Shown here one piece after another: positions 41,648 to 47,352 of a DNA stretch of 64,000 nt. The DNA lies in the NCBI RefSeq assembly GCF_044324875.1, contig NZ_CP172186.1, one strand, 5' to 3'. The position numbers and the translations under genes are program-made. Numbering within the stretch: position 1 is the stretch's first letter; each line of letters begins with the position of its first letter. This DNA comes from Escherichia coli. Its GTDB lineage: Bacteria; Pseudomonadota; Gammaproteobacteria; Enterobacterales; Enterobacteriaceae. The notes under the pieces are model-generated. The model was not told where the DNA came from, ran no database searches, and saw only the letters and a program-made list of their open reading frames with translations.

Positions 41648-42096
41648 TTTTTCTCCGGCGTCATAAAAGACAGATGTAAACGCCCGGCTGACTGCGAGAG
41701 TGTTGCCCGCCAGGCAGTCTGGGCTTCAGTGAGACGAAGGACATCAGCAAAGGTCATGTCGCGGACGTGCAGTGAGACGGGTAAGGGGAGACGGACGCCG
41801 CTGTAGCTGAACTGCTGGCCGCGCAGACGGGCCAGTTCGTTGAGCAATTCCAGGGCATCGCCTTCCCAGTCAAAGGAAACACGGTCGCTGTGAGCCTTCA
41901 GACTGCCGCCGGACTGACGCTCCGGAAGGGCTGCAGAGTAAATTCCCTGCCCCCATAGCTGATACTGCGCATGCCGGGCGACGGCGACATCAGAGGCAGC
42001 ACCATACTTTCTGGTCGGAGCTGTATTATCCGGGGGGAGATGGCAGCCGTTCAGGCAGAGTACGGCGAGACATCCCGCAGGTATCATACGGTTCAT
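41644..42096 (-). CDS. traH: conjugal transfer lipoprotein TraH
   Basis: Lipobox LCLNGCH; 150 aa; synteny. Confidence 0.6.
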   Translation of the reverse strand: MNRMIPAGCLAVLCLNGCHLPPDNTAPTRKYGAASDVAVARHAQYQLWGQGIYSAALPERQSGGSLKAHSDRVSFDWEGDALELLNELARLRGQQFSYSGVRLPLPVSLHVRDMTFADVLRLTEAQTAWRATLSQSAGRLHLSFMTPEKK

Positions 42097-42144
42097 GGTG
42101 TATTTTTCCTGAGCAGTGAAAGAAGAAAGCGTTGTGGGGAGGAT

Positions 42145-42327
42145 TTACTGGTTCGTGTTTTTGCTGAATGGCTGGAACACCTCAGAGGGTGACAGTGCTA
42201 CCCGGATACAAATATCGTTTGCTATCACGATATTACATTCGTTAGCTGTCGGATCCCGGAACGGTTCCACCATAAAGGCTTTGTTTTCGATATGCGTTTT
42301 ATTTTTGTTAAACATGCATTTCCTCAT
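42145..42327 (-). CDS. small ORF (TraG-like by position)
   Basis: 60-aa track ORF between traF and traH; no motif. Confidence 0.25.
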   Translation of the reverse strand: MRKCMFNKNKTHIENKAFMVEPFRDPTANECNIVIANDICIRVALSPSEVFQPFSKNTNQ

Positions 42328-42454
42328 GCGAAAATGATATGTCAGATAACAGCCAGATCAGAGGCAGCACTACAGGTCTGGCTGTGTCGTTTGATGGTCG
42401 GAAAACGCGAGGATGCAGGTCTGGATACCCCGGTCAGTACCGGGGCAGAGATGA

Positions 42455-43705
42455 TCAGAATGTGAACTGCAGTTGTGCAACGGCACCGTAGTTGTTGTCT
42501 GTGCCTGCTATACCCGCCACATCAATATGGACGACATCAAATGGTGAGATACCCAGCCCGGCGGTGAACGCACTGCCATCATTGCTGGCCAGATTCTGGC
42601 GGTAGCCTGCACGTAACTGTGCCCATTTCCAGGCATTAAATTCAGCACCAATGGCAGCAAACTGACGTTTACTGTCTGATGTGAAGCCACTGGCCGGGGT
42701 CAGGTCAACATCCAGTGCTGTAGTGAACATGTCGTTGTGCCAGGAGACACCGGCAGTCACCTGCGGGCGGATCCTGAAAGTTTCAGTGACACCGTTCACT
42801 TCTTTTGTCTCAATACTGCGGGGGAGCAGGTTCTGTGCGACCAGACCCAGTGTCCAGTTGTCATCCAGGTCCATGCTGGCCCCGATATCAGCGTTAATGC
42901 CGTTTCTGGTGTTGTGGTAACGGTCGCCTTTGAAAGCGCTGCTGTCGTAATTTTTAACCAGCACGTTGTAGCTAAACAGGTCAACACGCTGGAATTTTGG
43001 TGTGAAGCCCAGAGACCACTTTTGTCCGGCCGTTTCCAGTTCAGTAGCCAGAGCAATACCCACATCGGTGACCAGTGCGGCACGGGCAAAAGCCTGAGAG
43101 GTCAGTCTGTCTTTATCCACATCCTGACCGTTACTGTTTGCAATGCTTTCCAGATAGTTCAGGTCGGCATCACTGACTTTACCGTCGACACTGACCGTAC
43201 CGTAGCTTTTCAGCATCAGAGCGGCAGCGAGGGTGTCACCGGGAAGAGTCGCCACAGCAGATGTTCCCACCTGTGCGTCAGCATGCGTGTGACGGAAGTC
43301 CTGAAGTCGCGTCTTCAGACGTGCAGCAGTCTGCGACACGTTGCTCTGACTGTCGATGGCACGATCAAAGGCTTTCCAGTCATCACTGATTTTGTCTGCG
43401 TTGTCACTGATATTACCCGGATCGGACAATTGCCCACCAACGGACGGAATCAGAAGACTGAAGTCATCTTCCGGACCGGCTTTTGTCAGCAGGGCCGGGT
43501 TTGCCAGAGGTGCCACACCGTAGTGAGAGGAGGCTACCCCGGTTCCCCCCATTGCATCATTGCGGGCTTCAAAATATGAAGTTGCGGCTGTTGAATTAAA
43601 GGAAAATAAAACAGCAGATGCGATGAGAGTTCGGGTAATGTGCATATTCATCATCATTTCAGTTTCCTGGTTTGAGGTGTTTTGGGTACAGCAACGGTAT
43701 GACAC
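42455..43705 (-). CDS. traF: outer-membrane beta-barrel protein TraF
   Basis: Signal peptide, alternating beta pattern, C-terminal ..AQLQFTF terminal Phe. Confidence 0.6.
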   Translation of the reverse strand: MSYRCCTQNTSNQETEMMMNMHITRTLIASAVLFSFNSTAATSYFEARNDAMGGTGVASSHYGVAPLANPALLTKAGPEDDFSLLIPSVGGQLSDPGNISDNADKISDDWKAFDRAIDSQSNVSQTAARLKTRLQDFRHTHADAQVGTSAVATLPGDTLAAALMLKSYGTVSVDGKVSDADLNYLESIANSNGQDVDKDRLTSQAFARAALVTDVGIALATELETAGQKWSLGFTPKFQRVDLFSYNVLVKNYDSSAFKGDRYHNTRNGINADIGASMDLDDNWTLGLVAQNLLPRSIETKEVNGVTETFRIRPQVTAGVSWHNDMFTTALDVDLTPASGFTSDSKRQFAAIGAEFNAWKWAQLRAGYRQNLASNDGSAFTAGLGISPFDVVHIDVAGIAGTDNNYGAVAQLQFTF

Positions 43706-43746
43706 GACTGTGCCATTAAAAATTTACTGGTTTTTTCTCTGCGTTA

Positions 43747-44568
43747 TTACCAGGGTAATAACGGTATACTGAATAACTCAGCAGGTAATATTTTTCCTGT
43801 CATCAGATATTCTGCCTGTGCCGGACGAAGCGTTACGGTCCGGACGGATGTCTTTGCATATAAATTGCGGGCAGTGTGAAACCAGTTTTCTTTTTCCTTA
43901 TTCATTCTTACAGGTGATAAAGAAAGTACAGGATAAATGATGGCTTTATTAATTTCTTTTTTCTTGCGGAACAGTACACCGCAATATTCCTGTGAATGAA
44001 CACCGGCAAAAGGAAAACTGTGCCAGATAATAATATCCACATTATCGCTGGCTGAAATAAGCTGGCAGAACGCATCCTGTGTTGCTGGCCACTCACCGGC
44101 ACGGCTTAAAGGATAACGTACCCTGCCGTTCAGCCATTCCGGGTTGAGATAAAACCAGTCAGCCAGAGCAGTCAGAATCTCTCCTGTCAGATAATCTGCG
44201 AGTTTGTCCGGGTCACGGAAAACGGCAGGACGGATATTCCAGGGAGCCAGTAACGTTGTCATCGTTGTTACGCAGACATCATGTGCCTGCATGATGTGTT
44301 CTGTCCGGCAGATAAGACGGTGAACGATGTTTTCAGCCGGGAGAAACATTTCAGTTAATGCATCTTCGACCAGGATACGCGTCAGGTCGGATACAGAAAG
44401 GGAGAGTTGCTCGCTCATTATTCCGAGTGCTTCTCTGACGCCCTGCGGATAACGGATCTGCAGGGGAGTGGACTGCAACTGGCGGTTATTGAGCAGAGCT
44501 TCACTAATCCGGGCCCTGTCAATGGAGAGCATCATGCGGGCAGCAATGCCTGTGCTGTTGGGTTTCAT
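43747..44568 (-). CDS. traE: conjugal transfer protein TraE
   Basis: 273 aa; first tra gene after rci; synteny. Confidence 0.5.
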   Translation of the reverse strand: MKPNSTGIAARMMLSIDRARISEALLNNRQLQSTPLQIRYPQGVREALGIMSEQLSLSVSDLTRILVEDALTEMFLPAENIVHRLICRTEHIMQAHDVCVTTMTTLLAPWNIRPAVFRDPDKLADYLTGEILTALADWFYLNPEWLNGRVRYPLSRAGEWPATQDAFCQLISASDNVDIIIWHSFPFAGVHSQEYCGVLFRKKKEINKAIIYPVLSLSPVRMNKEKENWFHTARNLYAKTSVRTVTLRPAQAEYLMTGKILPAELFSIPLLPW

Positions 44569-44827
44569 TTCACCTCCGTGCGGTTCATATGTTAAGTCTA
44601 AAGAGCGTGTTTACTGAACGGAAACGAGTTATTTCGATCGTTATGATCGAGTGTGTTTCAAGAGTGCTTTTAACTCTGTTTTAAGCGTGAATGAAAAGGA
44701 TTCGGACAGGACGTGATTTAGTATGCCGCTGGTCTGGCATTATGCTGCAGAGCAGACGGAGTCAGGAGATTGAAAGTATTTCGTTATATAATCTTTTCCT
44801 TTTCGGGATGAAATCAACGAGGTTCGT

Positions 44828-45148
44828 ATGAAAATTAAACAGCATAAAGAAAAACTGGAGATTATAAGGGATATTATTCGAGAGACGCTGTTGGGTAATG
44901 CTGCTCTTATTGTTCTGGCAGCCATGGTTCCGGTTGTACTGGTGAAACCATGGGATTCGATGACATTTATTTTTATGGGGGCCGTGTGTGTTTCTTTTGC
45001 AGTCATTCTGTTTTGGCTGGTTTATATAGTTTGTTTGTATATAGGAACGCTTGTAAAGAATATTTTTATAAGGATTTTTGCTTTTTCTATTTGGGCCCTT
45101 TCTGCTGAGGGGGCAATTATTTATAACATGATAAAGATATTATCATAG
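44828..45148 (+). CDS. hypothetical small membrane protein (106 aa) in low-GC islet
   Basis: Three predicted TM helices; opposite strand to all neighbours; AT-rich context. Confidence 0.4.
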   Translation: MKIKQHKEKLEIIRDIIRETLLGNAALIVLAAMVPVVLVKPWDSMTFIFMGAVCVSFAVILFWLVYIVCLYIGTLVKNIFIRIFAFSIWALSAEGAIIYNMIKILS

Positions 45149-45239
45149 AAAAGTTGTTTATATATTGGCTCTATGTAAAAAGAATGGTACCTCTGCCAGA
45201 GTTCCCGGCGTTATTTTTATGTGTTGGGGCCATGAATGT

Positions 45240-45560
45240 TTATTTGGCATCCCTTATCTCGCCCATTAGCAGGCGGATACGCAGCCAGGTGTCATGATCC
45301 AGAACAGGTGATGGTGTTACCATGCAAGCACAGTGCCCGATGGCGAGCGTATCAAGGAAGCGTTTTGCATCGCTGGCACTTTCATATTCACCAGTATGGA
45401 TCAACATCCACCTTTGCCCCAACGCTGATTCGGTGTGAATTGGTTGCGAGAATGCGATTGTGTAAACGTCTTCAATTGTAACGATACGATTATTATCCGC
45501 AGTGGCTGCACGGGAGGATAAGTGTTTCATAAAGGGTCTCATAGCGTTAATTTTGAACAA
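45240..45560 (-). CDS. hypothetical protein (106 aa) immediately downstream of rci
   Basis: 12-bp gap after rci stop; no motif. Confidence 0.4.
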   Translation of the reverse strand: MFKINAMRPFMKHLSSRAATADNNRIVTIEDVYTIAFSQPIHTESALGQRWMLIHTGEYESASDAKRFLDTLAIGHCACMVTPSPVLDHDTWLRIRLLMGEIRDAK

Positions 45561-45571
45561 AAATTATTTGT

Positions 45572-46741
45572 TCAGGAGGAGGATATGAAAATACTGTTCG
45601 CTTTTGTCATGAACTGGCTGTTTGTTAACGGACAAATCATGACCCGTTCATCAATGTTTGCGGGTAGCTCGCCTGGTGTGGGGACGCGTTCACCCCGCTG
45701 AGCAGCCTGGGCCAGTGCGCGCAGCAACAATACGCTGGCGTGAGATATTGCCAGTTCCCGGGTTTCAGCACGGCTTTCAAGGTCGAAATCGTGCAGTGTC
45801 ACAATGAACACTCCGTTTCTGTTTCTGACAGTTGCAGGGTAGGGAACAAAATAAGGGGAAATTTTGCTGGTCTGTTTACGCCTTGCATCGAGTTTACTGA
45901 CCAGGTGATATGCCCGGAGATGTGTGTACCGTTTCAACATGTTCAGGGAGCGGTGACCGGAAATGGCTGCAATCTCCATAACGTTCAGTGTGCCGAGCTC
46001 GAACAGACGGCTGATGGCCTCATGGCGGAGATCGTGAAAATGCAGATTTTCTATTTTCAGATCCAGAAGAGCGGTACGCCAGGCGCTTTTGAAACCGGAC
46101 GAGGTGTAATTGAACACATTGCCGTTTATCTGTTGTGGCAGAATTTGCAGGTAGTTACGTGCTTTCCGGGAGAGTGGTACGTCGCGTGGTGAGCCATTTT
46201 TCGTTTCAGGAAGATGCGCCACGCCGTGCTGCAAATCGAGGTGTTCCCAGCGTAATGAGAGAATTTCTCCCTGGCGCATTGCTGTTTCCAGAGCCAGATG
46301 GAAGATAACGTAGAGCTGCGGATTTTTGTCCCTGAAATAGCGGGAAAGGCGGCGTTCTTCACCAGAAGTCAGTCGGCGGTCGCGGCCATTACTGATTTTC
46401 GGTTTTCGGACCAGTTCAACAGGATTCATACGGCATGTTCCCCATTCCACACGGGCGATATTGAATAATGATGATAAAAGGGCAAGTTCAAGACGGACGG
46501 TATTTCCGGTGATTTGACGCCCTGTTCGTGGGTTAATTTGAGCTAAACGCTGATCCCGGTAACCGGCGATATCAATGGTAGTGATTTCATCCATATAGCG
46601 CTCGGCCATAGGGTGACGTTTAATCACATTGACGCGATAAAACTCCTGCAGATGACCTTTTTTATGGACGGAAACGGTTTTCAGGTATTTGTCCAGCGCC
46701 CGGTTGAGAGTCATTTTGCGAATTTTGATTTTTCGAAACAT
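45572..46741 (-). CDS. rci: shufflon-specific tyrosine recombinase Rci
   Basis: Integrase-family motifs ..[16 protein letters not shown]..; adjacent to 19-bp shufflon repeats; start placed downstream of the repeat at 46804 (track ORF extends to 46810). Confidence 0.85.
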
Positions 46742-46803
46742 ATCTGCCTTCCACGATAAAAACGGGGAAGGTAGGAATAGTGAAACGGAAATGCAATATC
46801 GCC

Positions 46804-46822
46804 GTGCCAATCCGGTTCGTGG
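46804..46822 (+). repeat. shufflon 19-bp repeat gtgccaatccggttcgtgg
   Basis: Read directly. Confidence 0.9.
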
Positions 46823-47352
46823 ATTAGGGTATCAGGTAGCACTGTTCTGACAGGAAAAATCGCAAATGGAGAACGACTACCTTTGCCGTCTGGTTTTTCT
46901 GCCAGCCAGTGTACCTGGAGCGTCAGCAATGCTGAAAACCCGCATGGCTGGAAGCCAAATTACTTCGCAGGTTCTGTTGCGACATATGATTCGAACAGGA
47001 TTGTGAAGTGTGGTTACTACGATGAATACAATTTTCACGGCGGTACAAACAGGAACGACCTGACGGGGAAATGTAGTTACATTGTGGTTTGCCAGTAAAT
47101 CACTTTGTCATTGGCAAATGGCATGTACAGTTATTTTTCCAATGATGTGTTCTGTCGTATCGCAATAGCCATACCAGGCATTATTGTTTACAGGTATTGA
47201 ACGGACAAGCCAGATAAAGCCAATTCCAGAGCTGCATTCTGCACCACCCCCGATCACCTTCTTACCCATTGGGCAGGTGGCAGTAGCACCAGGCCAGCGG
47301 AGTTTTGATGCTGTTACTTTGACGATTTCAATATCGCCTTTTCCTGCATTTT

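Follow-up and report, generated by a model that had tools for sequence, protein, structure and literature searches.

The stretch of Escherichia coli DNA analysed here, 64,000 nucleotides (nt) of contig NZ_CP172186.1 and referred to below as the window, is 100% identical to the E. coli plasmid pLH50-c-A, typed IncK2/Z, MOBP, MPF_I. Between the shufflon recombinase gene rci and the transfer gene traE it carries a spacer of 1003 base pairs (bp; 44569-45571) with two small open reading frames (ORFs), ORF-A and ORF-B (Table 1), both of which are named 'hypothetical protein' in the window-type records examined. In the IncI1 plasmids R64 and ColIb-P9 the same spacer is only 150 bp long, contains no ORF, and aligns solely to window positions 44569 to about 44700; the window therefore holds an insertion of about 870 bp relative to IncI1. 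No orthologue of ORF-A or ORF-B lies between rci and traE of R64 or ColIb-P9, as a first-pass annotation made from the sequence had expected, and no IncI1-typed plasmid was found among the tblastn matches listed or examined for the two ORFs. The whole interval is present in about 130 plasmids at 97% identity or more. It is an accessory insertion (roughly 44700-45571) that, within the I-complex plasmids, is confined to the IncB/O/K/Z branch; its two genes are unrelated to each other. The full account developed below, in which this accessory insertion is a cargo slot holding a homologue of the F plasmid protein ArtA (ORF-A) and a near-neutrally evolving derivative of a secretion ATPase (ORF-B), is considered fairly probable.

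The insert (44700-45571) has a guanine-plus-cytosine (GC) content of 41.1%, against 52.1% for the whole window, and ORF-A, at 35.8%, falls within the lowest 0.9% of 321-nt segments, in agreement with the low-GC islet described in the first-pass annotation. That annotation had also pointed to a plus-strand ORF of 106 amino acids (aa) directed against the transfer region, and this was confirmed: between 35 and 60 kb, all ORFs of at least 140 aa that correspond to annotated genes lie on the minus strand, so ORF-A opposes the transfer region. The three transmembrane (TM) segments proposed for its product are supported by hydropathy, which agrees with the three helices (residues 2-39, 44-75 and 79-105) of an AlphaFold2 model with a mean predicted local distance difference test (pLDDT) score of 85.8. 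Rfam gave no match at an expectation value (E) of 1 or below over 43500-47000, and no phage relatives were found when these were looked for.

Table 1. Features of the rci-traE interval and its flanking genes, in window coordinates.
Feature	Coordinates	Strand	Description
traE, left flank	43747..44568	-	273-aa ORF; annotated conjugal transfer protein TraE in CP063731; allele dN/dS (defined in the text) 0.20
Conserved element upstream of traE	44569..44700		Common to the 150-bp R64/ColIb-P9 spacer; from alignment
TATAAT, putative -10 box of ORF-A	44787..44792	+	Perfect match, read from the sequence; block partly conserved upstream of F artA
GAGG Shine-Dalgarno	44819..44822	+	5 nt before the ORF-A ATG; from sequence
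ORF-A, ArtA-family protein	44828..45148	+	106 aa; identical to WP_000695052.1 ('hypothetical protein')
ORF-A/ORF-B spacer	45149..45239		91 nt between convergent 3' ends
ORF-B	45240..45530	-	96 aa; identical to WP_065898789.1 ('hypothetical protein'); alternative in-frame starts ATG 45542 and TTG 45560
rci, shufflon recombinase, right flank	45572..46741	-	Pfam Phage_integrase, E 6e-25; site-specific integrase in the PGAP annotation; dN/dS 0.10

The relationship of ORF-A to ArtA emerged from several kinds of comparison. A tblastn search of the whole plasmid database with ORF-A returned alleles from I-complex plasmids together with ArtA genes of IncF plasmids, the latter 35% identical across 85% of the length; E values against F-type ArtA and Klebsiella sequences ranged from 3e-3 to 2e-5, the ORF of a Klebsiella IncF plasmid giving 2e-5. 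In direct BLASTP comparisons, ORF-A was 35% identical to ArtA of F/pOX38 over 91 aa (E 4e-11) and 37% identical to the Klebsiella ORF in the position of ArtA (E 2e-13). The strongest conservation lies at the N-terminus, where KEKLEIIR[DN]IIRE[ST]LLGNAA is near-invariant across all groups (alignment columns K-E/D-K/T-L-x-I-I-R-D/N-I-I-R-E-S/T-L-L-G-N-A-A), with R14, I16, R18, G23 and A26 invariant in alignments of both 4 and 21 sequences. A profile search collected 128 family members, many of them named 'toxin ArtA' by NCBI, and joined the I-complex alleles to the ArtA-named proteins; a truncated I-complex allele (P0028) was among the members found in this way. Neither Pfam nor NCBIfam contains a model for the ArtA family.

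To our knowledge, artA has been a named gene of the F plasmid since 1989, and we know of no function for it. It was reportedly described as an 'anti-tra' ORF between trbA and traQ of F. In the F sequence it occupies that position on the strand opposite to the tra operon and ends 1 nt from trbA, while the artA-like gene of a Klebsiella IncF plasmid lies between traQ and traF, likewise on the opposite strand. All of the ArtA genes examined are AT-rich (32-36% GC). ORF-A was found to share with this family its overall similarity, the N-terminal motif, a length of about 100-113 aa with three hydrophobic helices, and the opposite-strand orientation. Over the first 27 codons, the window allele and that of pSTEC2018 differ by 2 nonsynonymous and 8 synonymous changes (Fisher p 2.7e-5), and in comparison with F the synonymous sites of this segment are saturated; since these codons are full of synonymous differences, it is the protein rather than the DNA that is conserved. 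For the whole ORF the ratio of nonsynonymous to synonymous substitution rates (dN/dS) is 0.41 (p 4.5e-4), and the membrane part evolves much faster, with a proportion of nonsynonymous differences (pN) of 0.41-0.57. By these comparisons ORF-A is a clear homologue and a new I-complex member of the ArtA family, and it is subject to purifying selection that is very strong at the N-terminus. The literature searched contained no paper noting an ArtA homologue in an MPF_I plasmid, and searches for ArtA function, for evidence of toxicity or for a link between ArtA and shufflon (I-complex) plasmids returned only citations of the 1991 insertion-mutant study.

ORF-B required a decision about its start before its relatives could be compared. 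The first-pass annotation had placed a 106-aa ORF 12 bp after rci, and such a frame does exist as the longest one (45240..45560), beginning with TTG 11 nt from the rci stop codon at 45572. However, a 96-aa product from the conserved ATG is more likely: the Prokaryotic Genome Annotation Pipeline (PGAP) places the start at ATG 45530 (MKHLS...) in the window-type records checked, leaving a gap of 41 nt to rci, and MKH forms the aligned N-terminus in nine of ten family members, one allele being annotated from an ATG four codons upstream.

The ORF-B family proved to be very small in both word-indexed and exhaustive HMMER searches, with roughly 16 matches in all. Among the matches inspected, the only distant relatives were the metagenomic proteins P0055 (83 aa) and P0058 (106 aa). 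Six further matches (P0046-P0048, P0056, P0057 and P0059) were rejected as artefacts of repeat proteins, having tandem repeats or biased composition and many weakly matching stretches. A homologue of 83 aa from a cultured organism, BEM75880.1 ('hypothetical protein'), is encoded by Serratia marcescens pE36_3, where the gene order is virB8, virB9, virB10, the homologue, a 165-aa ORF, virB11, a 117-aa ORF and virD4; virB9 and virB10 are here labels given by position and size, the record itself having 'hypothetical protein'. In a five-sequence alignment, identity to ORF-B was 46% for BEM75880.1, 44% for P0055 and 26% for P0058. P0058 is encoded directly upstream of an ATPase of the T2SSE family (locus L012), and in another locus (L014) a relative of ORF-B follows TrbI. 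The type IV secretion system (T4SS) genes of these two loci showed no similarity to the window-type plasmid or to R64.

Several lines of evidence connect this family with the ATPases of secretion systems. BEM75880.1 matches ORF-B at a database-wide E of 1e-8 and a genuine Vibrio ATPase at 3e-4, P0058 is similar to the ATPase encoded just downstream of it at E 2e-7, and P0055 matches Pfam T2SSE at E 6.7e-4 (model positions 196-258 of 370; 18.8 bits against a cut-off of 24.9). When the family profile was aligned with hhalign to the VirB11-like ATPase downstream of P0058, the probability was 90.7 and E was 1.3e-6; the score was 45.3, whereas 200 column shuffles averaged 12.4 and never exceeded 18.5. 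When the PDB was searched by profile, CpaF (2.5e-4), VirB11, PilT, a VirB11-like protein, HP0525 and PilU came out on top, and seven of the eight best matches were secretion ATPases, aligned on the Walker B motif and the His box in an alignment that also takes in the Asp box. In the window allele these motifs read RIVTIED, MLIHTGE and IGHCAC; in other alleles they are degenerate (TGRD, LTGN), and there is no second histidine. A stretch of about 20 residues that would separate the Asp box from Walker B is missing from all family members, as is the P-loop: Walker A (GxxGxGK[ST]) is absent from every ORF-B allele, the ATPase alignment beginning only after it. With neither Walker A nor an N-terminal domain, ORF-B cannot be an ATPase. 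ORF-B is best taken as a much shortened descendant, without catalytic activity, of a VirB11/CpaF-type ATPase core, and as an enzyme it falls outside that family. Against this derivation it should be said that the E. coli sequences alone give a borderline similarity, their score of 26.4 lying just under the highest shuffle score (26.5), and that the AlphaFold2 model of ORF-B is poor (pLDDT 39). ORF-B itself has no T2SSE match, and no model in Pfam, NCBIfam, PADLOC or PHROGs matches the window protein significantly.

Two other relationships of ORF-B were considered and set aside. An origin from the plasmid's own TraJ or PilQ gave marginal E values (0.015 and 0.062) that were no better than shuffles, and homology to TrbA of F was rejected (hhalign E 0.32). 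Observations on two of the relatives may be recorded separately. The C-terminal tail of P0058 (L012 1746-2066), RLNVILRGKTGKGKT, resembles the Walker A segment KLNIIIFGGTGSGKT of the ATPase just downstream; the motif order of P0058 is circularly permuted with respect to that ATPase, a hint of an old partial duplication. Beside an F-type traI on the MOBF plasmid pE13 of Serratia marcescens lies a frameshifted remnant (…FKINAMRFFMKQLST…; L015 2408-2665, minus strand) of the 5' end of ORF-B and the sequence upstream of it; this remnant has 82% nucleotide identity to window 45418-45571, and the region of ORF-B has evidently travelled between types of plasmid.

With these identities, the first-pass annotation, which saw no recognisable function in the ORF after rci and named no family for ORF-A, needs correcting, ORF-A being an ArtA homologue and ORF-B having a traceable origin in the core of a VirB11/CpaF-type ATPase. 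That annotation had offered two ways in which it might be wrong. Of these, the possibility that both ORFs are conserved named genes holds in part for ORF-A, since ArtA is a named gene in F, though not in the IncI references; the possibility that they show no coding conservation is partly approached by ORF-B (dN/dS about 0.75, not significantly below 1).

The selection statistics of ORF-B deserve closer attention. Its allelic dN/dS of 0.73-1.1 is not significantly below 1, whereas the same plasmid pairs yield values of 0.10-0.20 for traF, traE and rci (p to about 1e-36). Likewise, the pair of homologues from Serratia and the metagenome has a dN/dS of 1.3, as against 0.11 for the adjacent virB10. 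From this contrast with its neighbours, ORF-B is probably non-catalytic and either vestigial or weakly functional, and a vestigial or weakly functional mini-protein downstream of rci is its most likely description. It descends from the part of a VirB11/CpaF-type ATPase in which the Asp box, the Walker B motif and the His box are found, shortened by about 20 residues; it lies behind rci and is probably transcribed together with that gene. Several findings nonetheless sit uneasily with a vestige. ORF-B is intact in about 200 plasmids, in at least three alleles and with a 9-nt insertion or deletion that keeps the frame; in its N-terminal 18 codons synonymous changes outnumber nonsynonymous ones by 4 to 2; against the Serratia homologue, pN is 0.33 and the proportion of synonymous differences (pS) is 0.59; and unrelated T4SS clusters likewise retain the short form, lacking the same internal segment.

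It is conceivable on these grounds that ORF-B functions by imitating a subunit of an ATPase; it would copy the surface of VirB11-type proteins at the nucleotide pocket and subunit interface, bind the hexameric secretion ATPases of the plasmid (TraJ of the T4SS, PilQ of the thin pilus) or a partner of these, and modulate transfer or pilus assembly, with co-expression with rci coupling this activity to the shufflon. The intact frames would fit such a role, as would the conserved termini, the lower pN than pS in the deep comparison and the occurrence of the short form with the same deletion in E. coli I-complex plasmids, a VirB-type plasmid of Serratia and metagenomic T4SS loci, the loci outside the I-complex always placing it beside virB10 or virB11. 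This is judged unlikely, however, because dN/dS is 0.73-1.3 in every close comparison against 0.1-0.2 for neighbouring genes, catalytic and contact residues vary by allele (TIED to TGRD, TGE to TGN), the structure model is not confident, and the similarity to TraJ and PilQ is marginal, as given above; in general structural terms, moreover, an isolated piece of a RecA-like core would hardly be expected to fold by itself. At the other extreme, ORF-B may not be a gene, and may simply be a frame left open by chance in decaying non-coding DNA after rci. A dN/dS indistinguishable from 1 would be expected in that case, and in a simulation 14% of sequences were still open after 63 random substitutions, the number observed for ORF-B; the poor AlphaFold2 model and the lack of a family model matching the window protein point the same way. 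That the start region is conserved with synonymous changes and the insertion or deletion is in frame makes this distinctly unlikely, and the similarity both to secretion ATPases and to small ORFs of T4SS loci indicates that ORF-B descends from coding sequence. If it is vestigial or weakly functional, as preferred here, this miniature VirB11 ORF is a case of machine-gene fragments persisting as 'hypothetical proteins', and it would represent a new class of regulator only if functional.

The stretch from ORF-B to traE behaves like a swap-prone cargo slot whose occupant may be an ArtA allele, another small ORF or an insertion sequence (IS), one taking the place of another. Plasmid pSTEC2018_166 carries an ORF-A allele with 48-51% identity, separated from ORF-B by 430 bp that contain no annotated gene, and pSTEC636 has a frameshifted form of this allele type together with a 94-aa TM ORF on the minus strand. 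In pESBL3156 (NZ_MW390523), ORF-A is replaced by an unrelated minus-strand ORF of 181 aa (WP_029391928.1; L003 2751-3296), for which neither Pfam nor PHROGs gave a match, and the breakpoint with respect to the window falls exactly at the putative promoter region of ORF-A (about 44766-44775). One plasmid has an IS3 insertion in the interval. The flanks are recombinant as well (43747-46741): depending on the partner plasmid (pESBL3156, pSTEC636 or pSTEC2018_166), identity is either 99.9% or 80% for traE and either 88% or 97-98% for rci, with opposite patterns for the two genes, which places recombination breakpoints inside or beside the islet. The rci-traE junction is in this sense a hotspot for recombination and cargo, and it may help in typing. 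As plasmids of the IncK/B/O/Z group are important carriers of extended-spectrum β-lactamases (ESBL) and AmpC, their accessory genes are of some practical interest.

The 94-aa hydrophobic ORF of pSTEC636 (L004 3058-3342, minus strand) is unannotated; it is convergent with the frameshifted ArtA-like allele and overlaps the 3' end of that allele, an arrangement that recalls artA and trbA of F. Homology of this ORF to TrbA was rejected, there being no detectable similarity. A second small difference in cargo was seen elsewhere in the same operon, between traF and traH. At this place R64 and ColIb-P9 encode a member of the histidine phosphatase family in a gene of 585 nt (in R64 at L010 44097-44681), where window-type plasmids (window 42096-42455) have only a 171-nt hypothetical ORF, WP_001597011.1.

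Expression of ORF-A would depend on signals of its own, namely the Shine-Dalgarno sequence and the perfect -10 box of Table 1, and its transcription would run convergently to that of rci and ORF-B, as that of artA does to trbA in F. A GAGG or an equivalent GGAG also precedes F artA and the artA-like gene of Klebsiella. The TATAAT is best regarded as a putative promoter element. ORF-A has no canonical -35 box, a TTGAAA at 44770-44775 being just 11 nt upstream of the TATAAT, and it counts against this promoter that the box is lacking and that a consensus promoter scan called none at the TATAAT. No convincing bidirectional terminator was found in the spacer between the convergent genes (fold z-scores of +0.47 on the plus strand and -1.98 on the minus strand).

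The ORF-A product is predicted to be an inner-membrane protein with three helices; its basic amphipathic N-terminus of about 20 residues, strongly conserved between MPF_F and MPF_I plasmids, would lie in the cytoplasm. The conserved N-terminal helix may contact a partner that enterobacterial hosts, or shared plasmid backbones, have in common, rather than a part specific to one T4SS, while the variable membrane helices, which occur in several alleles, could confer allele specificity. With low confidence, ORF-A is proposed to be a dispensable accessory envelope protein of the exclusion or immunity type rather than a part of the transfer machine, because it occurs with two unrelated types of T4SS, combines an invariant N-terminal helix with fast-evolving allelic helices, and sits in a swappable cassette. 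Indeed, the presence of an ArtA homologue, in the same anti-tra orientation, in a mechanistically unrelated (Dot/Icm-like) system argues against a specific role in the F pilus machinery. Immunity proteins of pore-forming colicins include a three-TM type and are usually encoded on the opposite strand, and the likeness of ORF-A to them in size, helix count and orientation is a lead only; no colicin immunity family in Pfam matched ORF-A at E <= 1. A number of points weigh against an exclusion or immunity-like role. Neither ORF-A nor F ArtA gave anything significant in Pfam, NCBIfam, PADLOC or PHROGs, where the best result was a function-unknown PHROGs match at E 0.078; Foldseek of the ORF-A model against the PDB returned generic helical bundles only, with E > 1; and the role itself is read from allelic diversity and architecture.

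Another reading of ORF-A takes up the names in the databases, where F-type ArtA proteins are called 'protein ArtA' in some records and 'toxin ArtA' in others. ORF-A could accordingly be a small membrane toxin for post-segregational killing or abortive infection, with the convergent transcripts acting as an antisense antidote; it is a small hydrophobic protein of an AT-rich gene with its own putative promoter, and antisense overlap with the convergent neighbours is plausible. The text matches to 'toxin ArtA' in the literature searched, however, all concern the unrelated ADP-ribosylating ArtAB toxin of Salmonella and none reports toxicity, so that the name may be a collision. No type I toxin, toxin-antitoxin or defence model in Pfam, NCBIfam or PADLOC matched, a protein of 104-113 aa with three helices exceeds typical type I toxins, and frameshifted or truncated ArtA alleles are common. 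Insertion mutants of F artA are said to be viable, with no phenotype and no transfer defect. A toxin is on this evidence very unlikely. More improbable still is that the act of transcribing ORF-A matters and its protein does not, so that it insulates the pil-shufflon-rci operon from the traE-traY operon or tunes rci and ORF-B by interference or antisense RNA: the anti-transfer orientation is kept in two unrelated types of T4SS, the convergent genes have no strong terminator separating them, and the ends of artA and trbA in F are 1 nt apart, but the conservation of the N-terminal 27 codons at the protein level despite synonymous change, and a frame kept open across alleles of 31-50% identity, indicate selection on the ORF-A protein and weaken this model, and some plasmids hold unrelated minus-strand ORFs in the slot instead.

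A broader extension of the exclusion or immunity-type proposal for ORF-A may also be sketched, although it is regarded as very doubtful. ArtA proteins might be a portable module usable with any type of T4SS, with the N-terminal helix docking to a partner in the host or shared backbone, TM helices that are allele-specific, and the anti-tra orientation as a requirement; ORF-B might, as a separate matter, be the founding member of a group of P-loop-less 'mini-VirB11' regulators of secretion ATPases in T-type and I-type conjugation.

The one part of the interval that the IncI1 plasmids share is the conserved element upstream of traE. Within it, at about 44635-44652, lies the inverted repeat TCGATC-N6-GATCGA, which includes two GATC sites, and a scan called a terminator-like hairpin on the plus strand at 44633-44651. 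This palindrome with its two GATC (Dam) sites could be an operator or a terminator between rci and traE. The core at window 44621-44675, GAAACGA.T.ATTTCGATC......GATCGA.TGTGTTT...GAGT..TT..AACTC, was seen in all of the I-complex variants examined as well as in R64 and ColIb-P9. About 300 further I-complex plasmids match the window at 44583-44726 only, with about 88% identity; the single one of these that was examined lacks rci and the shufflon.

The locus may be compared with known systems at several levels. The interval as a whole resembles that of IncI1 R64 and ColIb-P9 in its flanking genes and in the conserved element upstream of traE, and differs from it in that the IncI1 spacer is 150 bp, with both ORF-A and ORF-B absent. 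ORF-A is like F ArtA (WP_000415566.1) in size (106 and 104 aa, respectively), in a near-identical N-terminal motif and in its three hydrophobic helices, and the two genes are alike in being AT-rich, in having their own GAGG, in lying on the strand opposite to the transfer genes and in converging with a small downstream gene. In contrast to this likeness, overall identity is only 31-35%, the window allele is annotated just as 'hypothetical', and ORF-A belongs to an MPF_I (Dot/Icm-like) plasmid, where it lies between rci and traE, outside any F tra operon; its convergent partner is ORF-B rather than the membrane protein TrbA, and these two partners are unrelated.

For ORF-B, the comparison is with the VirB11/CpaF/PilT ATPases (T2SSE, PF00437). 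The window allele can be matched in order to their Asp box (RIVTIED), Walker B (hhhhTGE) and His box (xGHxxC), motifs that are degenerate in other alleles, and ORF-B differs from them in lacking Walker A, the N-terminal domain and the second histidine, in its deletion of about 20 residues, in having 96 aa where these ATPases have 320-500, in falling below the Pfam gathering threshold and in its near-neutral evolution. Its closest counterparts are BEM75880.1 and the metagenomic P0055 and P0058, in which its internal deletion recurs, as do the motifs EIAFTP and TGHxGC(M/L)VTPP. Unlike ORF-B, these proteins are without its 12-residue N-terminal extension, HLSSRAATADNN, and their genes lie in VirB/D4-type clusters next to virB10 or virB11, whereas ORF-B follows the shufflon recombinase of an I-type plasmid.

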